Source: an uncultured Candidatus Saccharibacteria bacterium
Lineage (GTDB): Bacteria > Patescibacteriota > Minisyncoccia > Phycocordibacterales > UBA2100
Reading direction: 5' to 3'
NCBI GenBank assembly: GCA_964648335.1
Contig: CAZYLZ010000006.1
Span: 3,974 to 67,973 of the forward strand
DNA length: 64,000 nucleotides
Shown here: positions 11,257-37,128 of the stretch, one piece after another
Layout of the letters: every line of letters starts with the position of its first letter
Position numbering within the stretch: the first letter of the stretch is position 1
Program-made: the position numbers and the translations under genes
The notes under the pieces: model-generated
Told to the model about the DNA's origin: nothing
The model's input: the letters and a program-made list of their open reading frames with translations, nothing else
Database searches by the model: none

Positions 11257-12504
11257 TTATTCGTGAATGACGCGTAATACCTCCTCGAGCGTTGTGAGAC
11301 CTGCCTCGACTTTCTTGAGTCCGTCGTCGAACATCGTCGTCATACCGTTCTTTATGGCGATATTTTTTATGTCTGCCGACGATGCACGCGCGAGGATCGC
11401 CTCACGGATCTCGGCATCGGCGACGAGCACCTCGTTGATACAGAGACGTCCGGAATAGCCGCTTCCATTGCAGGAGGCGCAGCCCGCTCCGCGGTGAAGC
11501 TTGGTCTTAGGGTCGATAGTACGGCCGGTCGTGAGCAAGAGATGCTCGCGCAAGGCGTCGGTGAACTCGGTCTCTTCCTTGCAGTCCGAGCAGATTTTGC
11601 GCACGAGTCGCTGGCCGATCGCGATGGAGACCGTCGTCGCAACCAAGAATCCTTCGATCTTCATGTCCAACAGACGTGGAATGGTCGTCGCCGCGTCGTT
11701 GGTATGTACGGTAGAGAGAAGGAGGTGTCCGGTGAGCGCTGTATTGACCGCGATACCAGCGGTCTCGGCATCACGGATCTCGCCGACCATGATGACATTT
11801 GGGTCCTGGCGCAAGATACTCCGAAGACCATTGGCAAACGTAAGCCCGGTGCGTGCGTTAACTTGTATTTGCTCTATGCCGTCGACGGAATACTCGATCG
11901 GGTCTTCGATGGTGATGATGGAAATGTCCGGCGACTTGAGCATCCGCACCAGCGTATACAAGGTAGTCGTCTTTCCCGATCCAGTCGGACCAGTCGCGAG
12001 AATCATGCCGGTCGGCTTCTTGATTGCCTGCAAGATCTTGCGTTTGTCTTCGGGACTGAACCCAAGGTCGTCGAGCGTAAAATCTTCGGCATTGCTCGAA
12101 AGGAGGCGCAGCACCGCATTCTCTCCGTGATACGTAGGACAAATCGAGACACGGATGTCGATGAAGGCTGTCTCGCCCATAGTGTGCCGGATGCGGCCAT
12201 CTTGTGTAGCGTTGTGCTCGTCAGTGCGTAACGATGCGAGAACTTTTATACGCGAAATAACCTCGCCGTGGATCTCTTTAGGCAAGAGGCACACCTGTTG
12301 CAACACGCCATCGACGCGAAAGCGGATGCGGACGCCTGTAAGGCTCGGGTCGATATGGATGTCTGAGGCGCGCATCTCGCTCGCCTTCTCGATGATGGCA
12401 TCGACGACATTTATGATGGAGCAATTGATTCCCCGAGCAAGCTCGAGGTCGAGTTTGCTTATGAGCACGTGCGAATTTATTTTTGGAATTACGGTATCCA
12501 TAGC
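11257..12504 (-). CDS. pilB: Type IV pilus assembly ATPase PilB/GspE family
   Basis: Walker A GPTGSGKTT, a tetracysteine CSDC...CASC zinc motif typical of GspE/PilB, and a GSPII N-domain. Start could be 12504 or the upstream Met at 12588. Confidence 0.8.
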   Translation of the reverse strand, partial: AMDTVIPKINSHVLISKLDLELARGINCSIINVVDAIIEKASEMRASDIHIDPSLTGVRIRFRVDGVLQQVCLLPKEIHGEVISRIKVLASLRTDEHNATQDGRIRHTMGETAFIDIRVSICPTYHGENAVLRLLSSNAEDFTLDDLGFSPEDKRKILQAIKKPTGMILATGPTGSGKTTTLYTLVRMLKSPDISIITIEDPIEYSVDGIEQIQVNARTGLTFANGLRSILRQDPNVIMVGEIRDAETAGIAVNTALTGHLLLSTVHTNDAATTIPRLLDMKIEGFLVATTVSIAIGQRLVRKICSDCKEETEFTDALREHLLLTTGRTIDPKTKLHRGAGCASCNGSGYSGRLCINEVLVADAEIREAILARASSADIKNIAIKNGMTTMFDDGLKKVEAGLTTLEEVLRVIHE

Positions 12505-12646
12505 GTGCAGAATTCTGTCGTAGCGGCCAATCAGACAGCGGAAATTTGCTGTAGGACATTTATACGCCCAGAGGGCCTCTACCCGCAACCAAAAACGCGT
12601 GGTTTGCTATGCGAAAGGTGGCGCAAAACAGCACTACACCACGCTT

Positions 12647-27900: not shown

Positions 27901-29412
27901 ATGGCCCAGAAACCAACGCACACCTCTCATATCACCGAGCGTCCTCCGGTCGTCGTAGTGATGGGCCACGTCGATCACGGCAAATCGTCGCTCCTCGACT
28001 ACATTAGACACACTAACGTTGTCTCGGGTGAAGCCGGCGGCATAACGCAGCACGTAGCGGCATACGAAGTCGTGCACGAGGGCAAAGAGGGCAAGAAACG
28101 GATCACCTTCATAGACACTCCTGGACACGCGGCATTCACCGCAATCCGTTCGCGCGGAGCGAACGTCGCGGATATCGCTATCTTGGTGGTCTCGGCCGAG
28201 GATGGCGTCAAAGAGCAGACGCTCGAGGTACTAAAGAGCATCCAGGATTCAGAAACACCTTACGTGGTTGCAATAAACAAGATCGACAAGCCGAACGCCG
28301 ACATCGAGCGCACCAAGGTTACCCTCATGGAGCACAACGTGTTTCTCGAAGGGCTCGGTGGCGATGTACCTTGGGTTCCTATTTCTGCCAAAACTGGCCA
28401 AGGCATCCCCGACCTCCTCACGACCGTACTTCTTCTTGCCGAGATAGAAGAGCTTACGGGCGACGAGAATGCGCCTGCAGAGGGATTCGTCATCGAAGCA
28501 AACCGCGATTCGCGCCGTGGCATCGCAGCAACCCTCATCATCACCAACGGATCGCTCAAGATCGGCAACGCGATCCGCGCAAGCACGGCGATCGCTCCGC
28601 TGCGTATACTCGAAGACACCATGGGTAAAAAGCTTAAGAGCGCCGAGATGTCATCACCGATCGTGGTCGTCGGCTTTGACGAACTGCCGCTTGCCGGTAC
28701 GTCGTTCGTCACCCACAACAACAAGCGCGATGCCGAAGAGGCTCGCTCGGCGTTTGTGCGCGCACGCGGCCGCGTTGTGCCACAAGCAGTTGCAGCACAG
28801 GGCACCAAGCACATCATCCCCATCATCATCAAGGCAGATGCGGCAGGATCTCTTGAGGCGCTTCTTCAGGCTTGTGGAGCGCTTGCTACCGAATACGCAG
28901 CCATCACGGTCATCCAGAGCGGTATCGGTCCTGTTTCCGAAAACGACACCAAATCGTCTCTGGCGTCCGGCAGCGCTACCATCATCGCGTTCAACGTGAC
29001 CACCGACAAAAACGCGCTCGAGGCTGCACGCCAGCACTCGATCCCGATCGAAACCTTCGACATCATCTACAAGCTCGTCGAGCGTCTCGAGGCCATCATC
29101 AAGAACCGCACGCCAAAACGATCCGTCGAGAAAGTCTTGGGAACCATTAAGCTCTTGAAGCACTTCAGCAAGCAGAAAGAGTTGCAGGTCGTGGGTGGTC
29201 GGGTCGAGGAAGGAACGCTCGCCAAGAAGGCGAATCTCAAGGTCTCTCGTCGCGGCGTCGTCTTAGGCTACGCCAAAGTGGTTAACCTGCAGTCGCACAA
29301 GCAAAACGTCGAGCGTGTCGATGCCGGCGGTGAGTTCGGCGCACAGCTCGAGGCTGTGTTCGAGATGGCTCCGGGCGACACGCTCGAGAGCATCCAAACC
29401 GTCGAAGAATAA
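27901..29412 (+). CDS. infB: Translation initiation factor IF-2, short form beginning at the G domain
   Basis: [22 protein letters not shown] GTPase motifs. 503 aa. Followed by rbfA. Confidence 0.85.
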
Positions 29413-29416
29413 TACT

Positions 29417-29746
29417 ATGGACGATCTCCAGCGCATGACTCGCTTTTCAGAAGAACTCGCTCACCAGGCGGCCGAGTTTATACTGCAAGAGATGGGCAGG
29501 CAGTCTTTGGTCACCGTCACTCGTGCGCAGTCTTCGGACGACTTTAACGGCATCACTATCTTCGTGACTGTGTTTCCCGAATCCGAGCAAGAAAAGGCAC
29601 TGGCCTGGCTCAAGCGCTCGCGCACGGCGTTTCGGGACTTTATTGCCAAGAAATCGCCCGGATTACGCCCTCCTACCATAGACTTTGTCATAGACCTCGG
29701 CGAGCGAAATCGCCGCCTCATCGACGAGAAGCTCAAGCCTTTGTAA
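29417..29746 (+). CDS. rbfA: Ribosome-binding factor A
   Basis: MDDLQRMTRFSEELAHQAAEFILQEMGRQSLVTVTRAQSSDDFNGITIFVTV pattern. infB-rbfA synteny. Confidence 0.7.
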   Translation: MDDLQRMTRFSEELAHQAAEFILQEMGRQSLVTVTRAQSSDDFNGITIFVTVFPESEQEKALAWLKRSRTAFRDFIAKKSPGLRPPTIDFVIDLGERNRRLIDEKLKPL

Positions 29747-29768
29747 GCAGAATTTGGGACACACTTGC

Positions 29769-29797
29769 CTACCACCCCTCGTGTGGTAGTTTTTTTA
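29769..29797 (+). terminator. Rho-independent terminator
   Basis: ctaccacccctcgtgtggtagttttttt. Confidence 0.7.
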
Positions 29798-29820
29798 TAG
29801 ATACAACACAAGGAGCTGGT

Positions 29821-30126
29821 ATGTCGATAATGGTACTTATGCTCGGGGCCAAGGGTCCTGGCAACGTCACCGAGTGGCGAGTCGATACGGTAGAGCCGTT
29901 CGACTCGAAAGAGTTCCAGCGGATCGGGATCAAGAACACACGAGTTGAAGCGTTTCTAAAGGCGCAGCTCGCGGATGCCTTCGTGACGACAGATCGCGAT
30001 CATGCCCTTTCGGTCGGCTTTTGGCTTGGTGAGACACATCCCTACTGGTCCGACTTCCACGGAAAGTTGGTGGATATGTGGATCACGGTACTCGACTATT
30101 CGGCTACGGATGGGTTTCCTGTCTGA
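29821..30126 (+). CDS. Hypothetical protein (101 aa)
   Basis: aaggag RBS. Terminator hairpin ccaccgtacggtgg plus T-run at 30131-30160. Confidence 0.45.
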   Translation: MSIMVLMLGAKGPGNVTEWRVDTVEPFDSKEFQRIGIKNTRVEAFLKAQLADAFVTTDRDHALSVGFWLGETHPYWSDFHGKLVDMWITVLDYSATDGFPV

Positions 30127-30160
30127 TATGCCACGGCCACCGTACGGTGGTCTTTTTTTA

Positions 30161-30286
30161 TCCCGAGAGTGGGACTCGGCCAAGAACATTCTTAAACGCC
30201 GACGCGTTCAAGAATTTCTCGGCCCTGATTCTGCGACCAGGCCTACTGGCCTAGTACGCGCAGAATCGTTCGAGTCCCACTCTCGG
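30161..30286. repeat. ~125-nt compound inverted-repeat structure whose outer arms are copies of the tRNA-Leu(TAA) 3' end
   Basis: ccgagagtgggactcg at 30161-30176 and its reverse complement at 30270-30285. A 21-nt tRNA-sense copy gttcgagtcccactctcggca lies at 30265-30286. Two nested internal hairpins at 30177-30221 and 30225-30267. Confidence 0.7.
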
Positions 30287-30297
30287 CAAAAACAATA

Positions 30298-30321
30298 CGG
30301 CCTGCAAACATGTTTGCAGGC
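30298..30321. terminator. Perfect 24-nt palindrome ggcctgcaaacatgtttgcaggcc (bidirectional terminator candidate just 3' of tRNA-Leu)
   Basis: Perfect palindrome followed by T-rich sequence on both strands. Confidence 0.55.
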
Positions 30322-30334
30322 CTACTGTTTTATG

Positions 30335-30421
30335 TGCCGAGAGTGGGACTCGAACCCACACGCCGTTTTAAGTCGGCAAGAGATTTTAAGTCTCTGACGT
30401 CTACCATTCCGCCATCTCGGC
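30335..30421 (-). tRNA. tRNA-Leu(UAA), type II with long variable arm
   Basis: Minus-sense GCCGAGATGGCGGAATGGTAGACG..AGAGACTTAAAATCTCT..variable arm..TGTGGGTTCGAGTCCCACTCTCGGCA. Anticodon TAA. CCA not encoded. Confidence 0.85.
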
Positions 30422-30424
30422 TTG

Positions 30425-30640
30425 AGATATTTAGAGGGATTCGGCCACCCGTAATTTGCTGGTGCAAATTCGGTCGGCCCCCGCTCGTCCTCGTCAGGAC
30501 TCCGCGATGCGAATCCCTCCCGTCATGTGCCTATGCACATGACTTCAGGCTCCCTCATGGGATTCGGGAGGCCTGAGAGGGATTCGCACCCTCGCATAGT
30601 AGTTTTGCAGACCACCGCGTTTACTTCTTCGCCATCAGGC
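30425..30640. other. Highly structured intergenic region with four copies of GGGATTCG/CGAATCCC and several perfect hairpins (candidate ncRNA or tRNA-derived fragments)
   Basis: gagggattcg (30434) pairs with cgaatccctc (30509). Hairpins aatttgc-tggt-gcaaatt, tcatgtgc-ctat-gcacatga, gaggg-attcgca-ccctc. The reverse complement TGCGAAT loop resembles a T-loop. Confidence 0.35.
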
Positions 30641-30745
30641 CGTAGCAGGCAGTATAAATCATGAATGGCATAGTCCAAAATGCTTGAGTAGTGCCGCCCC
30701 ATCAGCATGGTTAAATTGAGTCCAGGAAGCATACAGGAGAAACTA

Positions 30746-31396
30746 ATGACTCACGAAGAAACCATCACCGCCATCGAGAAGCGCGTCAGGACAATGATGC
30801 CAACCGAGGCTGCGCACGACTGGTTCCATGTCGAACGTGTGCAGCGAACGGCGCGTCATATAGCTCGTGCCGAGGGCGCGAGCCTCTACATCGTAGAGCT
30901 CGCGGCACTTTTGCACGACATCGGTGATTGGAAGTTCCACGATGGCGACGACACCGTAGGTCCAAAGATAGCACGCGAAGTGATGGCCGAATTCAAGATC
31001 GAGCTGCCTGTCGTCGATCATGTGGCCGACATCATAGCGACCATATCGTTCAAGGGTGCGGGTGTACCCACGCCCATGCGGACACTCGAGGGCAAGTGTG
31101 CTCAAGACGCCGATCGTCTCGACGCAATAGGTCCCATCGGCATCGCTCGCGTATTTGCCTACGGCGGACATAAGTGCACACCTTTGTGGGATCCGAACGA
31201 AAAGCCGGTTCTGCACACCAACAAACAAAGCTACCATCGCAGTACTGCAAGCTCGCTCGGGCACTTCGACGAAAAGCTGTTTCATATCGCCGGGCGCATG
31301 CAGACAAAGACCGGCCAAGCGATGGCACAGGGACGCGACGCATACATGCGCGAGTTCGTAACCCGCTTCAAGCAAGATTGGTTTATCGACGAGTGA
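30746..31396 (+). CDS. HD-domain metal-dependent phosphohydrolase
   Basis: HDWFHVERV...LLHDIGD...DADRLDAIG motifs. aggaga RBS before ATG 30746. Confidence 0.7.
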   Translation: MTHEETITAIEKRVRTMMPTEAAHDWFHVERVQRTARHIARAEGASLYIVELAALLHDIGDWKFHDGDDTVGPKIAREVMAEFKIELPVVDHVADIIATISFKGAGVPTPMRTLEGKCAQDADRLDAIGPIGIARVFAYGGHKCTPLWDPNEKPVLHTNKQSYHRSTASSLGHFDEKLFHIAGRMQTKTGQAMAQGRDAYMREFVTRFKQDWFIDE

Positions 31397-31408
31397 CACG
31401 ACCACACT

Positions 31409-31445
31409 GGTCCCGCGCACATGCTGCGCGGGACCACATTATTTG
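31409..31445 (+). terminator. Rho-independent terminator
   Basis: ggtcccgcgcacatgctgcgcgggacc followed by acattatttg. Confidence 0.65.
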
Positions 31446-31543
31446 ACACATTTCTAATGTACAGTCGAGGTAGTTTAGTGTTAGATACAAAGAGACACTT
31501 CCATCCGGAGGTGGAAAAGAGAAGTAACAACAGGAGAAGTATC

Positions 31544-33388
31544 ATGTGCGGAATCGTCGGATGCATAGGCGCCAAGCCAGCACTCCCCATGCTCTATGCA
31601 GGTCTCAAAGACCTCATGTATCGCGGGTACGACAGTGCAGGTATCGCGACCTTCAACAACGACTCTATCGTGCGCGCTCGCGTTCAAGGTGCGCCTTTGA
31701 AGCTCAAACACAAGCTCAAGCACCTTCCGCAAGACGCCACGGTCGGTATCGCTCACAACCGGTGGGCCACTCACGGCAAGCCGGCCGAACGGAATGCGCA
31801 TCCGCATACCTCGAGCGGCAACATGGTCGCGGTGGTCCATAACGGAATCATCGAGAATCATGATGAACTTCGAGACGAGCTGATCGCCCAAGGCTGCCGC
31901 TTTCAGAGCGAAACCGACACCGAGGTCATCCCGAACCTAATCGAACGAGAAATCGTTGCCGGCGCGAGGGATTTAACCCAAGCTGTCGAGCGCATCGTTC
32001 CCCGGCTCAAAGGCGGCTTCGCGATCGCGGTCATCTCGAGCCTCTTCCAAGACGAAGTCGTGCTCGTTCGATCGGGCATGCCTCTCATAATCGGAGCGGG
32101 TATCGGTGGCGTCTATTTTGCCTCAGACGAGACCCCGCTTGTCGACTATGTGAAGGAAGTGGTTCAGATGGTCGACGGCGAGATAGCTACTCTCTGTCGC
32201 GACGGAACCTTCCAGATTGCACGTAAACGACTGCCGAAGAATTCAGACCGGAGGCGGCCGCTGCGCGTACAGAAAGGAACAACTGGAAAGGACGGGCACA
32301 AGTACTACATGTTCAAAGAGATCATGGAACAGCCCGAATCCGTGCGAAATGCCATCCGCGGACGACTCTTCGATGGCACCGTGGTACTGCCCGAGCTCGA
32401 TCTGATCGAGGATAAGATCAGAAATGCGTCGTGCGTTACCCTGGTCGCCTGCGGCACCTCGAAATATGCTGGAGCAGTCGCTCGACTCGCATTCGAGAAG
32501 CTTGCGCGCGTGAAGACGATGCTCGAAGAAGCATCCGAGTATCATACGCGCGAAGCCCTTGTCCAAGACGGAGAGCTCGTCATCGGCATCTCCCAATCGG
32601 GAGAGACCGCCGACACCTGCCTTGCGCTCGAATACGCCAAGAACCGCAATGCCACGTGCATCGCAGTAGTGAACCGACAGGGCTTCAAGCTCGGCGACAT
32701 CGCTGATGCCGAGATCGGAGCGCTTGCGGGTCCCGAGATAGCAGTAGCCTCTACCAAAGCTTTTACGGCCCAGGTGGTGGTGCTCATTCTCTTGGCGATG
32801 CGCGTAGCGACAATCCGTGGGACGCTTACCGACTACGATCGTCTTCGGCTCGTCGAGAGCCTCGAGAACCTACCAGAGGCAGTCGAAGAAGTGCTCAAGT
32901 ACGCCAATGTGATGCGAAACGTCGCAAAATCGTATCTTGCGGCACCCAGAACGCTCTTCATCGGACGCGGCTATTGTGTGCCGATCGCCGACGAAGGAAC
33001 GCTCAAGCTCCAAGAGATCGGCTATGTCGATGCTGCTGCCTACTCGGCAGGAGCGCTCAAGCACGGACCCTTGGCTCTCGTCGAGGACGTGATCCCTGTA
33101 ATCGCAATCGCGCTTTCGGGAACGGCGTCGGACAAGACCTTAAACAGCGTGCAGGAAGTGGTCGCACGCAGCGGGCACATCATCGGCATCGTCACGAAAG
33201 GGTCAGCAGAAGAGGAGCTCATGCGGAAGCTCGCGAAGGTCCTGATAAGCCTTCCAAACACTGCAGAGGAGCTCTCGCCTATTCTTGCGGCGCCACTCGT
33301 TCAGCTCTACGCGTACTACAGCGGCGTGCTTCGTAAGCACAACGTTGATCGTCCGCGTAATCTCGCAAAATCGGTGACGGTCGAATAA
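31544..33388 (+). CDS. glmS: Glutamine--fructose-6-phosphate aminotransferase
   Basis: Starts MCGIVGCIG (N-terminal Cys nucleophile), followed by two SIS domains. aggaga RBS. Confidence 0.9.
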   Translation: MCGIVGCIGAKPALPMLYAGLKDLMYRGYDSAGIATFNNDSIVRARVQGAPLKLKHKLKHLPQDATVGIAHNRWATHGKPAERNAHPHTSSGNMVAVVHNGIIENHDELRDELIAQGCRFQSETDTEVIPNLIEREIVAGARDLTQAVERIVPRLKGGFAIAVISSLFQDEVVLVRSGMPLIIGAGIGGVYFASDETPLVDYVKEVVQMVDGEIATLCRDGTFQIARKRLPKNSDRRRPLRVQKGTTGKDGHKYYMFKEIMEQPESVRNAIRGRLFDGTVVLPELDLIEDKIRNASCVTLVACGTSKYAGAVARLAFEKLARVKTMLEEASEYHTREALVQDGELVIGISQSGETADTCLALEYAKNRNATCIAVVNRQGFKLGDIADAEIGALAGPEIAVASTKAFTAQVVVLILLAMRVATIRGTLTDYDRLRLVESLENLPEAVEEVLKYANVMRNVAKSYLAAPRTLFIGRGYCVPIADEGTLKLQEIGYVDAAAYSAGALKHGPLALVEDVIPVIAIALSGTASDKTLNSVQEVVARSGHIIGIVTKGSAEEELMRKLAKVLISLPNTAEELSPILAAPLVQLYAYYSGVLRKHNVDRPRNLAKSVTVE

Positions 33389-33397
33389 ACCGCGCCA

Positions 33398-33475
33398 CGA
33401 CGCCGAGCACACTGTGCTCGGCGTTTTTTATTTTGGTCATTAATAAAAAATCCCCAGGGTATGACCTGGGGAATC
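33398..33475. terminator. Convergent terminator pair
   Basis: gccgagcacactgtgctcggcgtttttt for the plus strand. tccccagggtatgacctgggga with a T-run on the minus strand. Confidence 0.65.
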
Positions 33476-33484
33476 GAATCAATA

Positions 33485-34051
33485 TCAGACCGTCTCGGGC
33501 ACGGTCTGAAGCGGCCGCGAGATGGTTCTGCAATTGGCTTTATCGCCCGCGGACCAATCGAACTTTTCGGAGAGATCTACGTAGTCCTCGGGGCGGTCGA
33601 GTCGTACCCACACGCGGTGCGTAGCACCATCTGATGTCTTGTGGACTGTCTGTGCGATCTCGTCGACGCTTGCAAGGATGCCAGACTCGTCACTGTCGTC
33701 ATCATTCAATACGAGCCGCGCACCTTTCGCAGGCAGCGGGTCGAGGAAGACGAGGGATTCGAGACATGGCCCGAAGGCACGTGCGAGCTCCGTACTTGGA
33801 GCCTCAACAATCATCAGGACATTCGGCACTTCATCCTGCTCATCATCATAATCTCCCGTGTCATTTCGATCGTGCTTGTCGGGAGCGTTCACGTAAAGGA
33901 AAAACATCATGACGACCCACACCGTGCCGAGCACGAATAATCCGTCTGTATCTGCAAGCACAGGCTTACCGGCCGAAGTCGCGCGAAACAGTGACTCAGA
34001 GAACGCTACTACGGGCCAAAACCCGAGTGCCCAGATCAAGAAATACGCCAT
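33485..34051 (-). CDS. Hypothetical membrane protein with acidic C-terminal region
   Basis: Start chosen at MAYFLIW (34051) because gcaggagg SD lies 5 nt upstream. The longer ORF extends to 34162. Confidence 0.45.
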   Translation of the reverse strand: MAYFLIWALGFWPVVAFSESLFRATSAGKPVLADTDGLFVLGTVWVVMMFFLYVNAPDKHDRNDTGDYDDEQDEVPNVLMIVEAPSTELARAFGPCLESLVFLDPLPAKGARLVLNDDDSDESGILASVDEIAQTVHKTSDGATHRVWVRLDRPEDYVDLSEKFDWSAGDKANCRTISRPLQTVPETV

Positions 34052-34296
34052 TAGATGCCTCCTGCGTTGATACATAGCCACAAAGAAAATACTATTTATT
34101 GTCGATTTGTCAAATCGGCAATCCATCATGCACGCGTATGCAAAAAGATGCTTTCTGCACAATTCTCAGCTATCGGCCGAGTCATATTTTTTGTTAGTTT
34201 GTGGGTAGAGGAGCTCGGTCACGACTCTCAATCTGCCGTCGCAGATTTCGGTCGCGACCCCGCCTCGCGGTTTTGCCTGCTGGCCAAACATCGCTG

Positions 34297-34341
34297 CGGC
34301 TTTCGAGTCTCCCTCGCGATGTGCTCAAGCACATCGCTTCT
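34297..34341. repeat. Inverted partial copy of tRNA-Leu(UAG) 3' end interrupted by a 22-nt perfect palindrome
   Basis: ttcgagtctccctc[gcgatgtgctcaagcacatcgc]ttctgccca in tRNA sense on the plus strand, 25 nt from the real tRNA 3' end on the minus strand. Confidence 0.65.
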
Positions 34342-34365
34342 GCCCATAATGTCACTTCGTTCCTG

Positions 34366-34447
34366 TGGGCAGAGGGAGACTCGAACTCCCATGCCTTGCG
34401 GCGTCGCGTCCTAAGCGCGGTGCGTCTACCAATTTCGCCATCTGCCC
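34366..34447 (-). tRNA. tRNA-Leu(UAG)
   Basis: Minus-sense GGGCAGATGGCGAAATTGGTAGACGC..CCGCG CTTAGGA CGCGA..GGGAGTTCGAGTCTCCCTCTGCCCA. Anticodon TAG. Confidence 0.8.
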
Positions 34448-34536
34448 GTCCAGCCGAGTATAGCGCACCTGGCCTGTTTTCAAAACGAAATAACCTGTTA
34501 GAATAGCCCTCGTATCGGCAAAGGCTTATACAGTAT

Positions 34537-34609
34537 GCGCCCGTAGCTCAGTTGGTAGAGCAGCCGCCTCTTAAGCGGTAGGTCCATGGTTCGAGTCCAT
34601 GCGGGCGCA
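34537..34609 (+). tRNA. tRNA-Lys(CUU)
   Basis: GCGCCCGTAGCTCAGTTGGTAGAGCAGCCGCCTCTTAAGCGGTAGGTCCATGGTTCGAGTCCATGCGGGCGCA. Anticodon CTT. Confidence 0.9.
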
Positions 34610-34619
34610 CCGGAGACAA

Positions 34620-34650
34620 AAAGGACTGGCCTGTGCCAGTCCTTTTTGCG
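34620..34650. terminator. Bidirectional terminator hairpin
   Basis: aaaaaggactggcctgtgccagtccttttt. Confidence 0.7.
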
Positions 34651-34756
34651 AGGTGCGAGCCGGAGCAGCTTGGCTACGAATCACCTCGATGGTGGCAGGA
34701 GGGAGCCTGCCGAGCCCGGGCCGTGCGCGTTTATAGCAAGAAACCACGCTAGGCCA

Positions 34757-34797
34757 CGAAAATACAAAATCCCCTGTGGGGATCTTTGTATTTTATT
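34757..34797. terminator. Terminator hairpin at end of minus-strand small-protein array
   Basis: atacaaaatcccctgtggggatctttgtatttt. Confidence 0.6.
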
Positions 34798-34805
34798 TTG
34801 GTTCC

Positions 34806-34985
34806 TCATCGGACGTCTGCAGACTCCGCGAGGCTCCGGGTGTATTCTTCGAGCCTCTTACGATTCTCTTGTATCGCCTTCTCCAAGTTCGCAAGGCAGC
34901 GCCGGGCATGTGCCAGGTCGCGCTCGCGCGCCGCTATCTCGCCTCGATACCACGTAACCTCCTGTTGTATGTGTTGCGTATTCAT
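34806..34985 (-). CDS. Small coiled-coil protein P1 (59 aa; not in ORF table because <60 aa)
   Basis: Reverse translation MNTQHIQQEVTWYRGEIAAREADLAHARRCLANLEKAIQENRKRLEEYTRSLAESADVR. Paralogous pattern with the next two genes. Confidence 0.4.
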   Translation of the reverse strand: MNTQHIQQEVTWYRGEIAARERDLAHARRCLANLEKAIQENRKRLEEYTRSLAESADVR

Positions 34986-35035
34986 ATTTCACATATACAT
35001 GAACTGTATAGAGAAAGTATGAAGATAGTTTCAGC

Positions 35036-35290
35036 TTACCTTTTCTGCCCCGCCTGCTTCCTCAGATCATCGGCATACCGTTCCATATCCCTCTTATAAC
35101 CATCGAGCTTTGTCTTGCCACCTGCCATGTAGCGAGTCAGCTCTCCTTCGGCACGCTTCGCGTCATCTAGCTCGCGCGCAAGTCGAGCCTGTGTGCTTTT
35201 GTTCTTCTCTAATTCTCCCTGCTTTATCTCGAGTTCCCTGGTCCACCATGCCGCCTCGCTCTTTGCCTTTTCGATATTTATATCTGCCAT
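35036..35290 (-). CDS. Small coiled-coil protein P2 (84 aa)
   Basis: EAAWWTRELEIKQGELEKNK..., heptad-rich and charged. Same (W/R)(W/Y)xxE(L/I)....ELEK pattern as P1 and P3. Confidence 0.45.
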   Translation of the reverse strand: MADINIEKAKSEAAWWTRELEIKQGELEKNKSTQARLARELDDAKRAEGELTRYMAGGKTKLDGYKRDMERYADDLRKQAGQKR

Positions 35291-35343
35291 ATCTATGAGT
35301 TTATACTTTGTACCTGGTAAATAGCATGAAGGCAGCGGGCACC

Positions 35344-35592
35344 TTAATGAAGCTTGACCGACCCCTTGCGCTGCACCTCGTCGAACTCCGCCTTCGAGAG
35401 CTCGCGCTCTGCCATGCTCTTTTTTTGGCGGTCGCTCCTGATCTTCGCCTCGAGCTGCGCCGCGTGCACCTTAATCTTCTCAAGATCTTCTATCGTGCGC
35501 TTAGCTTTTTCGAGTTCTCGTTCCGCATTCTTGAGTTCTTCGCCGTATCGTTGGATGACCTGCTTTATCTGGGGGATGTCCATGGAGAGCAT
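35344..35592 (-). CDS. Small coiled-coil protein P3 (82 aa)
   Basis: QRYGEELKNAERELEKAKRTIEDLEK pattern. Confidence 0.45.
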   Translation of the reverse strand: MLSMDIPQIKQVIQRYGEELKNAERELEKAKRTIEDLEKIKVHAAQLEAKIRSDRQKKSMAERELSKAEFDEVQRKGSVKLH

Positions 35593-35599
35593 TATCTTC

Positions 35600-35941
35600 T
35601 TAAAAGCCCGTGGTTCCCGTCGGAAACGGGGATGTCGATCCGCTGTCGCGGTTGATACCTGTACTGTACGTCTGGCCGCGTATATCGAGCCCGAAAGTAT
35701 CGTCGATAAGCGAGATGATACTGCCGACCGCCACCATGATGAACATGCCGATGATGCCGTAGATCATATGATTCTTCCCGTCTGCGTTCTCGCCCCCCGA
35801 CTCCACGCTCCGCATAAACTGGAACAGTCCCCACACAAACACCAAAAATCCTACCGAGAATATCAGTAGGATTATTGGGTTGATGATGTATTCAACAATG
35901 CGGCCCAGGAGCTCTGCCCCGCTGGTTGCTGAAAAGTTCAT
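35600..35941 (-). CDS. Small two-TM membrane protein M1 (paralog family)
   Basis: Two hydrophobic helices separated by a short charged loop. C-terminal pattern (K/A)xR..IYG.I..F(V/M).V..I shared with M2-M4. Confidence 0.5.
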   Translation of the reverse strand: MNFSATSGAELLGRIVEYIINPIILLIFSVGFLVFVWGLFQFMRSVESGGENADGKNHMIYGIIGMFIMVAVGSIISLIDDTFGLDIRGQTYSTGINRDSGSTSPFPTGTTGF

Positions 35942-35963
35942 ACACTAAATCTATCGACGTGAG

Positions 35964-36323
35964 CTAGAAGCTCGTGCCCTGGAGCTGAATCGCCTTAGGG
36001 ATGATTGGATCGGTCGAGGTGACCTTGAAGGTGCTCTGCAAGAGACGGATGATACCCCAGACCGACACCATGACGAAGAGCGAAAGGATGCCGTAGATCA
36101 TAATGTCGCGTGCCTTCTCCTTCGACTCGTCTCCAGAGCCGATGTACTGGATGAGTCCCCAAAAGAAGTAGATGAGCGCCAAAGTGATCAGCATCGGTAT
36201 GACCGCGTTCAAGACCGTGTTCACCAAGTTGAGGGTGTCGAGAAACGTTACTGCTCCAGCCACTGCAGGGATCGTTACTGCTGCGATGGCGAGTGCTCCT
36301 GCGAGCTTGGGGCTAAAGTTCAT
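35964..36323 (-). CDS. Small secreted two-TM membrane protein M2 (VirB2/TrbC-like topology)
   Basis: Signal peptide MNFSPKLAGALAIAAVTIPAVAGA, TM1, loop GSGDESKEKARD, TM2. Confidence 0.5.
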   Translation of the reverse strand: MNFSPKLAGALAIAAVTIPAVAGAVTFLDTLNLVNTVLNAVIPMLITLALIYFFWGLIQYIGSGDESKEKARDIMIYGILSLFVMVSVWGIIRLLQSTFKVTSTDPIIPKAIQLQGTSF

Positions 36324-36362
36324 ACGGGGCGATTAGTTAAAGCTAGTGATATAGATACCATT

Positions 36363-36746
36363 TTACCCCCGAAGCGTCTCTTTAGGTTCTGCCGCTGTGG
36401 ATAGCATATGTGCATCGGGCCCTCGAGCGCTTCCAGCGGCGTCAAGGCTACTCTGGAGGATGCGCAGTATCCCCCAGATGGACACGGCTACGAACAGGAT
36501 GAGTATGCCCCAGCCGAAAATCTGCGACCGCTTAGCAAGACCGCCCTCTTCGAGATTCTGCGTCGAGTTGAATCCGATCCACATATAGTAGACAACCATG
36601 AGCGTAAGGATGGTCGGTATAAGCAAATCTATGATGCCGACGAACCAATTGACCAGATCGTCGAACGTCTTAGGTGCGGCAAAGGCCACCGCCGGCATCA
36701 CTATCAAGATGGCGAGGAGGAAGGTTATGCGTCGTGTGTACGCCAT
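36363..36746 (-). CDS. Small secreted two-TM membrane protein M3
   Basis: Signal peptide ..MPAVAFA|AP, TM1, loop NSTQNLEEGGLAKRSQ, TM2. Confidence 0.5.
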   Translation of the reverse strand: MAYTRRITFLLAILIVMPAVAFAAPKTFDDLVNWFVGIIDLLIPTILTLMVVYYMWIGFNSTQNLEEGGLAKRSQIFGWGILILFVAVSIWGILRILQSSLDAAGSARGPDAHMLSTAAEPKETLRG

Positions 36747-36747
36747 A

Positions 36748-37128
36748 TTAGCCGCGCAGCTGCTCTACGGTTCCTGCCAGTATTTGCGAAAGGGCCCACG
36801 CACCCAATATCATGATCGCTCCAATGACGACGTACAGGAAGTTGCGCTTTGCCGCCTCGATGCCGCTCGAGTTGCCGCGTGCAACCACAAACTGGAACCC
36901 AGCGTACACAATGAATACGCTGATGATGGGGAGCGAGATTGTGACTAGTGCTTTCAAAAGGCCCGATATGAATTCGGGGAAGGAGCAGAATTGGAGCGGG
37001 TTACTGAGACGCCCAGCATCGTTGGAACCGCATGCAGCGAATGTCGGGGTCACGCCTGCAAGCCACAGGCAGGTCGCCGAAGCGGCTAACGTACCGACCT
37101 TGTCATATGTCGAGGTAAATAGTTTCAT
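36748..37128 (-). CDS. Small secreted two-TM membrane protein M4 (possible lipobox FAAC)
   Basis: Signal peptide with TFAAC, TM1, loop ARGNSSGIEAAKRN, TM2. Confidence 0.5.
   Translation of the reverse strand: MKLFTSTYDKVGTLAASATCLWLAGVTPTFAACGSNDAGRLSNPLQFCSFPEFISGLLKALVTISLPIISVFIVYAGFQFVVARGNSSGIEAAKRNFLYVVIGAIMILGAWALSQILAGTVEQLRG

Follow-up and report, generated by a model that had tools for sequence, protein, structure and literature searches.

Behind the tRNA-Leu(UAA) gene of an uncultured Candidatus Saccharibacteria bacterium (GenBank assembly GCA_964648335.1, contig CAZYLZ010000006.1) lies a strongly folding stretch of DNA that is best read as a member of a previously undescribed family of small, gene-less elements found behind tRNA genes in Kaiserbacteria-like Patescibacteria. 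We analysed 64,000 nucleotides (nt) of that contig (positions 3,974 to 67,973), referred to below as the window, together with orthologous tRNA loci of relatives. The account that we consider probable, if by no means secure, is that these are small non-autonomous, structured insertion elements that spread horizontally, are specialised for tRNA 3′ ends and are co-transcribed with the tRNA. Each comprises about 130-185 nt made up, in tRNA orientation, of an antisense arm (B′), two conserved hairpins and a sense arm (A′), and pairing of B′ with A′ would give a three-way junction closed by a helix that repeats, in sequence, the acceptor/T-stem duplex of the tRNA itself. The grounds for this account are the anatomy of the loci, the specificity of the arms for their own tRNA, covariation together with strand-specific G.U pairs, filled and empty sites, and similarity of a horizontal kind between genomes. 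Patescibacteria have tiny genomes with very little non-coding DNA, so that a conserved, spreading non-coding element on single-copy, essential tRNA genes is unexpected.

Anatomy of the tRNA-Leu(UAA) locus

The window has a G+C content of 55% and four tRNA genes (ARAGORN and Rfam), none of which encodes CCA. The parts of the tRNA-Leu(UAA) locus are as follows.

30335-30421, minus strand: tRNA-Leu(UAA) (ARAGORN; Rfam tRNA, 57.3 bits), no encoded CCA
30335-30355, minus strand: C′, the last ~21 nt of tRNA-Leu(UAA) and the source of both copies; 3′ part of the T-loop, 3′ strand of the T stem, 3′ strand of the acceptor stem and discriminator A
30289-30333, no strand assigned: palindrome region, its lower stem A/U-rich; an intrinsic-terminator-like hairpin that is bidirectional and separates tRNA-Leu(UAA) from the element
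30267-30288, minus strand: B′, 22-nt antisense copy of the 3′ end of tRNA-Leu(UAA) (one mismatch); 5′ strand of the closing helix
30227-30267, minus strand: core hairpin 1 (minimum free energy structure; aligned to the family's covariance model, R1)
30178-30224, minus strand: core hairpin 2, GGGCCGAGA...GTCGG...TCTTGGCC, the family's most conserved module, with G.U pairs on this strand
30161-30178, minus strand: A′, direct copy of the tRNA-Leu(UAA) 3′ end, 18 nt with one mismatch (C72 to G); 3′ strand of the closing helix
30135-30152, plus strand: terminator of a convergent 101-aa open reading frame (ORF; 29821-30126, plus strand), the outer boundary of the element

Read in its own orientation, tRNA-Leu(UAA) is followed by a 12-nt A-rich trailer, the palindrome, a U-rich run, B′, the two hairpins and A′. 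An initial annotation of this DNA had reported inverted and direct copies of the tRNA tail and a perfect 24-nt palindrome, and all of these were confirmed at coordinates that had been given correctly to within 2 nt. The tail, the inverted copy and the direct copy each reach about 7 nt into an A-rich trailer; the repeat arms measure 28 nt (I1, 89%) and 25 nt (I2, 88%), and the direct repeat D3 measures 25 nt (88%), with 174 nt between the direct repeats from start to start. The complementarity of B′ to the trailer runs on to 30295, and A′ keeps the discriminator and then an A-rich trailer resembling that of tRNA-Leu(UAA) itself. For 48 tRNAs of unrelated bacterial loci, no inverted self-copy longer than 10 nt occurs in the 250 nt downstream, and in the same scan inverted self-copies of at least 14 nt were found only in the window strain and its relative L058. 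The self-copy pattern behind tRNA-Leu(UAA) is thus real and far beyond chance.

The nested hairpins noticed in the initial annotation were also borne out, in that RNA folding of 30155-30295 (141 nt) predicts a three-way junction, with -91.7 kcal/mol (z = -13.3) for the tRNA-sense strand and -77.0 kcal/mol for the other. In this copy the first base pair of the closing helix is mismatched.

The palindrome at 30299-30322 is perfect (12+12 nt) and scores as intrinsic-terminator-like on both strands in a terminator scan; the G+C-rich hairpin with a T-run that marks an intrinsic terminator is present there and not in the element. It forms the centre of a quasi-palindrome of about 88 nt (30268-30355). 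Several independent short-read assemblies of the window strain stop at 30315-30326 (the ends of L055 and L057), within or just past the 24-nt palindrome, a sign that assembly graphs may be broken here by the quasi-palindrome. Such quasi-palindromes, which would break short-read assemblies at tRNA loci, could also be mis-annotated as attachment (att) sites. The convergent 101-aa ORF has no Pfam match, ends 35 nt ahead of the element and turned up in no contigs but those of the same strain.

A family with a common fold

The other two minus-strand tRNAs of the window, tRNA-Cys and tRNA-Leu(UAG), carry the same kind of layout as tRNA-Leu(UAA), each built from its own tail, so that all three minus-strand tRNAs are covered; the initial annotation had overlooked these additional copies. 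In both, the inverted copy lies at +45 to +50 and the direct copy at +125 to +155. They are of a split-arm type, in which a small hairpin separates the acceptor part (Y′) of the antisense copy from its T-arm part (X′). In the Leu(UAG) element X′ is complementary to the tRNA tail at 14 of 14 positions and Y′, read directly from the sequence, at 8 of 8.

30569-30641, minus strand: tRNA-Cys(GCA), host of the second element (ARAGORN, Rfam)
30425-30551, minus strand: second family member, in the spacer from tRNA-Cys to tRNA-Leu (R1, 84.8 bits)
Parts of the Cys element, minus strand (repeat search and folding): Y′ 30545-30551; small hairpin 30523-30542; X′ 30508-30521; two core hairpins; A′ 30431-30443
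34366-34447, minus strand: tRNA-Leu(UAG), host of the third element (ARAGORN, Rfam)
34199-34346, minus strand: third family member, behind tRNA-Leu(UAG) (R1, 108.8 bits)
Parts of the Leu(UAG) element, minus strand: Y′ TGGGCAGA 34339-34346; small hairpin 34316-34337; X′ 34302-34315; two core hairpins; degenerate A′ 34202-34220
34537-34609, plus strand: tRNA-Lys(CUU) (ARAGORN, Rfam)
34640-34773, plus strand: candidate degenerate relic of the family behind tRNA-Lys(CUU), after an ordinary terminator (R1, 8.6 bits with filters off; motif likeness to the Lys trailers of L059, L140 and L058)

The assignment of 34640-34773 to the family is tentative. Sub-threshold Rfam matches to 'Plastid-ycf2' lie antisense to tRNA-Lys in the window (34537-34610, minus strand), in L147 (6806-6879, minus strand) and in L058 (12588-12661, plus strand), and appear to be an artefact of a model that resembles antisense tRNA.

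The interiors of the elements can be aligned, and RNAalifold finds in them two hairpins in which 16 of 22 pairs show compensatory changes and one G.U pair is invariant. A covariance model, R1, built from six members, was run against 742 kb of sequence, about 36 loci of which were controls. It recovers the Leu(UAA) element of the window on the tRNA-sense strand (33.9 bits, E ~2e-8) as well as the Leu(UAA) element of L058 and the Lys element of L140, and it gave no credible match in the roughly 36 control loci, which include other Patescibacteria. The model is a direct means of taking a census of these elements. One match of 32 bits is an orphan copy of the core (L058 1875-1936, plus strand) that is intergenic, antisense to the neighbouring genes, has no adjacent tRNA and is preceded by a small hairpin of its own. 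In an alignment of 12 members, 94.6% of the cells are paired, as compared with 71% when shuffled and 35-47% when the partners are slid; 19 of the 22 pairs change on both sides, and one G.U pair is kept in 9 of 11 sequences. Judged by these substitution patterns, the hairpin fold is under selection on the tRNA-sense strand.

The window's three elements agree with this, since all fold as three-way junctions and all are more stable on the tRNA-sense strand, each with 2-3 G.U pairs for which the antisense strand has A.C. The strand preference bears directly on the idea that the stretch behind tRNA-Leu(UAA) is an independent plus-strand gene for a small RNA or tRNA mimic, whose last part repeats the tRNA 3′ end exactly and whose terminator is the palindrome. 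The plus-strand reading does close on the tRNA 3′ end, identical over 21 nt, and a hairpin and a T-run come next, yet the plus strand folds 4-15 kcal/mol worse in three of three elements and loses the conserved G.U pairs to A.C. Moreover, the element begins right after the terminator of the upstream gene, which leaves no room for a promoter, and none is predicted there; ARAGORN calls only the four canonical tRNAs in the window, and neither it nor Rfam finds a tRNA or tmRNA on the element. We regard a plus-strand gene as very improbable indeed.

Rfam 15 has no family that matches (E<=1 for window positions 29000-36000; E<=0.1 for L140, L147 and L058), as only tRNAs and sub-threshold noise were returned, and literature searches found no described equivalent of the family. 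A scan of viral contigs with the core motif gave 12 matches, about the chance expectation, with none beside a tRNA and one weak match to the model. Several known RNA or DNA features were considered for the element and rejected. The GAAA linker that recalls a hammerhead ribozyme is the complement of the T-loop, the other strands of the ribozyme core are absent and Rfam is negative. A retron msr/msd can be dismissed as no reverse transcriptase gene is present within about 10 kb, and a retroviral-type primer-binding site does not fit the mature CCA end because no TGG precedes B′. Guide pairing of a group I or group II intron is excluded by B′ being complementary to the downstream copy and not to an upstream exon, and the Rfam intron models are negative; nor can the element be the leader of a downstream gene, there being no consistent gene past it in tRNA orientation. 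The notion that B′ as a rule complements the tRNA better than it does A′ was dropped, as it is inconsistent between copies and reversed in L147.

Homologues of initiation factor IF-2 point to a Parcubacteria/Kaiserbacteria-like Patescibacterium, the closest non-self IF-2 being 61% identical. Orthologous tRNA loci were retrieved through the neighbourhood infB-rbfA-tRNA(Cys, Leu-UAA, Lys, Leu-UAG), which is syntenic across the clade. A metagenome scan with IF-2 was dominated by generic bacterial IF-2 through the MGHVDHGK motif, and its useful loci were L058-L060; a scan with the neighbouring HD-domain protein returned identities of 50% or less in scattered phyla and no close relative, and its loci served as negative controls. 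Homologous elements are present in relatives behind tRNA-Leu(UAA) and tRNA-Lys (L058), tRNA-Cys, tRNA-Tyr and tRNA-Lys (L140), tRNA-Cys (L147), tRNA-Tyr (L150) and tRNA-Lys (L059), while orthologous tRNAs in L138, L142, L144, L145, L061 and L062 have plain short trailers and represent empty sites. Multiple dispersed copies with presence and absence, as expected of MITEs (miniature inverted-repeat transposable elements), are therefore seen: the 12 model matches are spread over 6 genomes, and at least 6 further genomes have empty orthologous sites.

The arms range from 4 to 22 nt across the family and are often imperfect. When each arm was compared with each tRNA, the top values fell on the diagonal for the long-armed types, which is to say that these arms fit the adjacent tRNA best. 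An example is a second element of L058, of the split-arm type, that occupies 12430-12606 between the convergent tRNA-Leu(UAA) and tRNA-Lys. Its Y′ (TGCCGGGG) and X′ (GTGGGACTCGAA) perfectly complement the tail of the tRNA-Leu that lies about 200 nt upstream, and its last hairpin is, on the other strand, also the terminator of tRNA-Lys. The proposal in the initial annotation of a tRNA-derived MITE does not hold in the usual sense, as the ends are copied from whichever tRNA adjoins and are not fixed terminal repeats.

Evidence of insertion and spread, and the tRNA precursor

The filled and empty sites of L058 and L164 indicate how the terminator-first type may have arisen. In L164 the tRNA-Leu(UAA) is directly followed by CAGGTTGAGCAAAGCGAAAGCTGTGCCGGGG..., and in L058 the matching sequence (91% over 77 nt) comes instead after the distal A′. 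Because the tRNA-Leu 3′ end and trailer of L164 align with A′ of L058 and the sequence past it, about 185 nt of L058 constitute an insertion relative to L164. The insert contains a new T-loop-to-discriminator segment, a terminator, B′ and two hairpins, with 19-20 nt of the tRNA duplicated, and on this alignment A′ in L058 is what used to be the 3′ end of the tRNA, now displaced. The Leu(UAA) elements of the window and of L058 are both terminator-first and have a similar hairpin 2 (GGGCCGAGA...GTCGG...TCTTGRCC), so the window element was probably born by insertion as well, and by analogy A′ at 30161-30178 would be the displaced original 3′ end of tRNA-Leu(UAA). L164 has an N run at about 2350-2365 between two tRNA-Cys/tRNA-Leu(UAA) pairs of differing sequence, one Leu copy of which apparently encodes CCA; these may represent a merge of two strains or a real duplication, and the pair used in the comparison is the second. 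Single-copy occurrence with conservation in all relatives and no indels had been named in the initial annotation as an argument against a mobile origin, and what was found is a multi-copy element that is present in some relatives and absent from others.

A displaced tRNA 3′ end also brings to mind the classical att scar that the initial annotation had put forward, taken here to mean an attL/attR remnant of a prophage or genomic island that was integrated by a tyrosine integrase and later almost wholly deleted. The direct repeat spans the T-loop (C56) to just beyond the discriminator, which is reportedly the block of identity typical of T-loop-class tRNA integration sites, and the part of that proposal in which a duplicated 3′ end marks an insertion is upheld by L058 and L164. 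The part that invokes an integrase is not, as no integrase, transposase or reverse transcriptase was found among the ORFs within about 10 kb on either side in the window (Pfam), there are no island genes, and the flanks are syntenic backbone genes shared with relatives. A scar would likewise leave unexplained why only 174 nt lie between the repeats, why there is an inverted copy with a covarying core, and why the same architecture and homologous core recur at three tRNAs of the window and others elsewhere. We therefore consider the classical att scar largely refuted and give it little credence.

The similarity between copies is not that of their genomes. The IF-2 proteins of L058 and L164 are 57% identical, infB DNA is 64-70% identical and the tRNA-Leu bodies differ, while the trailers are 91% identical. 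The 5′ modules of the L058 Lys and L140 Tyr elements are 97% identical over 65 nt in genomes with an IF-2 identity below 66%. In L140 the cores behind tRNA-Cys and tRNA-Tyr are 93% identical over 98 nt, whereas their arms are unrelated and each fits its own tRNA. The best reading of these identities is that the family spreads horizontally, both within and between genomes.

A different origin of the arms would be local template switching during replication (quasi-palindrome mutation) that copied each tRNA 3′ end around pre-existing terminators, with no mobile element involved. The 88-nt quasi-palindrome at 30268-30355, centred on the terminator, would suit such a process, as would the inclusion of trailer nucleotides in the copies, and template switching is known to create, extend and homogenise hairpin arms (PMC8794818, PMC8604942, PMC13100816). 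It does not, however, explain a covarying two-hairpin core shared by different tRNAs and genomes, nor the identities of 91-97% between genomes, nor the insertion of about 185 nt relative to L164. As the sole explanation it is rather improbable; template switching is more likely to be involved in the maintenance of the arms than in the origin of the element, and could plausibly be what keeps the arms in step with the tRNA.

For a mobile tRNA-targeted element, the steps that we infer are the transcription from the tRNA promoter, the insertion route, the upkeep of the match between arm and tRNA, and any role in the host. In the terminator-first type (30161-30334), insertion into the tRNA 3′ end would bring in a new T-loop-to-discriminator segment and a terminator, and the original 3′ end would be pushed downstream to survive as A′. 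Insertion could proceed by homologous recombination, with the conserved tRNA gene and A′ as the two flanking homologies, in which case no dedicated enzyme would be required, or it might be carried out by a trans-acting recombinase on the folded hairpin, as suggested by the direct-inverted-direct topology. The match of the arms could then be upheld by template switching or by selection. A bolder version, which we offer as a speculation with a small but real chance of being right, is that the element is target-programmed. B′ would act as a guide choosing the tRNA 3′ end, and the folded single strand, as DNA or RNA, would present a copy of the tRNA gene's 3′ end in hairpin form and would be inserted by a trans-acting recombinase or by the recombination machinery. 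The result would be a gene-less unit of about 175 nt resembling attC or CTXphi that, once integrated, serves as a two-state clamp on the precursor 3′ end.

Several points weigh against a mobile element. No mobilising enzyme was identified, and none of the known mechanisms of insertion would refit both arms to a new tRNA. The filled and empty sites are those of L058 and L164 and not of the window's own species, for which the contigs carrying the window's own proteins are 100% identical across the locus and hence hold no information on polymorphism. The split-arm type lies 17-23 nt past an intact tRNA that retains its original mini-hairpin trailer, and it has no junction duplication (L140 versus L144), so one mechanism may not cover all element types. 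The sample consists of about 50 tRNA loci from about 13 genomes, none of them whole, and the 12-member covariation alignment was fitted to the R1 model. Lastly, strong covariation and conserved G.U pairs would fit a host-beneficial RNA too.

Transcription of the element would start at the tRNA promoter. The Leu(UAA) copy sits between convergent terminators (the palindrome and 30135-30152 of the upstream ORF) and would for that reason be transcribed only by read-through of the terminator. In the terminator scan no terminator was found ahead of the Cys or the Leu(UAG) copy. The Cys copy, with no terminator before it and the next tRNA, tRNA-Leu, behind it, would necessarily be co-transcribed in the precursor, and the Leu(UAG) copy is very probably transcribed from the tRNA promoter. 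When whole precursors were folded, the predicted minimum free energy structure in six of six had the tRNA tail paired with B′ and the tRNA 5′ acceptor strand paired with A′. This swapped fold lies 5-14.5 kcal/mol below the combination of cloverleaf and closed element at the six loci, in calculations made without tertiary structure, base modifications or co-transcriptional folding, and it shows only that a competing precursor state exists, its use not being implied. The closing helix reproduces the acceptor stem and T stem, with discriminator and trailer-like continuation, and A′ usually retains the discriminator and 1-8 trailer nucleotides; recognition of the closed helix by tRNA-processing enzymes is plausible.

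These features could be those of a host-beneficial, cis-acting RNA of the tRNA precursor, a rival that deserves to be kept in view even though we think it unlikely. B′ would pair with either the tRNA 3′ end or the decoy A′, which would make the trailer a two-state device for the control of termination, of processing or of access to the 3′ end. In addition, RNase P and RNase Z would find in the closed helix an acceptor-like stem and a second discriminator/trailer junction for clean excision of the spacer, a function compatible with a mobile origin. This possibility is supported by selection for the structure on the tRNA-sense strand, by the position of the Cys element in the Cys-Leu spacer with no terminator before it or before the Leu(UAG) element, by the preference of all six folded precursors for the swapped pairing, through which the two states could compete, and by the discriminator and trailer nucleotides that A′ keeps. 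The Leu(UAA) elements of the window and L058, moreover, each follow the acceptor sequence of their own tRNA, Lys trailers of the family kind occur in four divergent genomes, and there is a precedent for functional RNAs made between dual terminators via read-through (PMC8144298). On the other hand, the elements are sporadic across orthologous tRNAs, with many relatives lacking them, and near-identical copies occur in distant genomes and at different tRNAs. A strong terminator parts the tRNA from B′ in the Leu(UAA) copy, the arms vary in length and are often imperfect, and a generic stem would do for processing with no need to copy the neighbour. Thus the alternative raised in the initial annotation, a terminator or processing element, is right about the palindrome, which is terminator-like, and survives as a live rival reading with respect to an RNA role of the element; the initial interpretation is, overall, partly supported.

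The surroundings of these loci show further variation. With infB-rbfA as the reference, tRNA-Cys has a minus orientation in the window, L138, L147 and L150 and a plus orientation in L058, L140, L142, L144 and L145 (coordinates compared: window 30569-30641; L058 11144-11218; L138 9851-9923; L147 5169-5241; L150 9050-9124). Because the orientation flips between related genomes, small inversions appear to recur at this locus. ORFs with weak Pfam matches to LAGLIDADG_3 or HNH_3 abut or overlap tRNA-Cys, tRNA-Tyr and tRNA-Leu(UAA) in relatives (L144 3472-4200, L150 158-940, L148 3420-3932). Selfish elements seem to concentrate at the tRNA loci of this clade, and homing-endonuclease-like nucleases there could stimulate the recombination that spreads trailer elements. 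Insertion sequence-type genes are present in L144 and L145. At 35600-37128 (minus strand) the window has a cluster of small ORFs with three T4SS_pilin-like Pfam matches, then a solute-binding protein and a methyltransferase, in a gene order also seen in L140 and L147. The IF-2 gene (27901-29412, plus strand) encodes only 503 aa, and the homologues in the clade are of similar length. Typical bacterial IF-2 is longer owing to its N-terminal region, and the short form would fit a reduced Patescibacteria genome.

Comparison with known systems

Integrative elements that use tRNA genes through T-loop-class tyrosine integrases resemble the present family in that a new 3′ segment restores the tRNA and the original end is displaced as a direct repeat, the identity running from T-loop to discriminator. 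The att-type direct repeat is present here (the 18-nt copy at 30161-30178, with a displaced 3′ end as seen in L058 and L164), but no integrase was found in or next to the insert (Pfam, about 10 kb each side) and there is no cargo of kilobase size, only 174 nt. The element differs from these systems in lacking integrase and cargo at about 175 nt, in its extra inverted att-like copy, and in a structured core shared behind different tRNAs with different arms.

Integration of folded hairpin att sites, as in integron attC and CTXphi attP, yields a direct-inverted-direct order. The element may be compared with attC (R″/R′) and with the attP hairpin of CTXphi in its succession of direct site, loop, inverted site, remainder and direct site, which corresponds to C′ 30335-30355, B′ 30267-30288 and A′ 30161-30178, and also in the conservation of structure on one strand, the non-Watson-Crick pairs and a stem that reproduces the duplex target. 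The attC or dif consensus (GTTRRRY/RYYYAAC or dif-like) is not visible in the element, whose arms have the sequence of the tRNA tail. In contrast to attC, its central region is conserved in sequence and its arms vary in length, and the likeness to sites of IntI and Xer is an analogy only.

MITEs, repetitive extragenic palindromic (REP) sequences and REPINs are, like the element, short, non-coding, multi-copy and strongly folding, occupy intergenic or convergent-terminator sites, are patchy in distribution and have near-identical copies within a genome. The fixed terminal inverted repeats of MITEs are missing, since the arms vary by copy and match the adjacent tRNA. The element differs further in being nearly always directly 3′ of a tRNA and on the tRNA strand, and a related transposase or RAYT (REP-associated tyrosine transposase) was not identified.

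The E. coli tyrT locus reportedly contains 178-bp repeats, each with the last ~19 nt of tRNA-Tyr, and so resembles our loci in having partial direct duplicates of the tRNA 3′ end in the trailer. As far as that account goes, it differs in having tandem direct repeats only, with no inverted copy, no covarying hairpins and no dispersed family. The 3′ETS-leuZ sponge is a functional RNA from the spacer or trailer of a tRNA operon. The RrA/B/F sRNAs are made between dual terminators when the first of these is read through (PMC8144298). Both are, like the element, non-coding RNAs within a stable-RNA precursor, but they have no copies of adjacent tRNA ends and are neither insertion-polymorphic nor dispersed. 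Mimics of the tRNA top half (the tRNA-like domain of tmRNA, YrlA/Y RNA, minihelices) share a closing helix made of acceptor and T stems with the discriminator and a continuous 3′ strand; in the element, by contrast, two hairpins take the place of the T-loop, neither ARAGORN nor Rfam recognises it, and the first pair is mismatched in the Leu(UAA) copy.

If mobile, the element would be a minimal tRNA-targeted insertion unit that has no gene of its own and ends that are rewritten for each target, which raises the question of how the target is matched. If it is a functional RNA, it would represent a new type of cis element able to compete with a tRNA for its own 3′ end. Set beside the systems above, the element, which is not in Rfam, is a fresh variant on known kinds, namely tRNA-targeted insertions and structured intergenic repeats.

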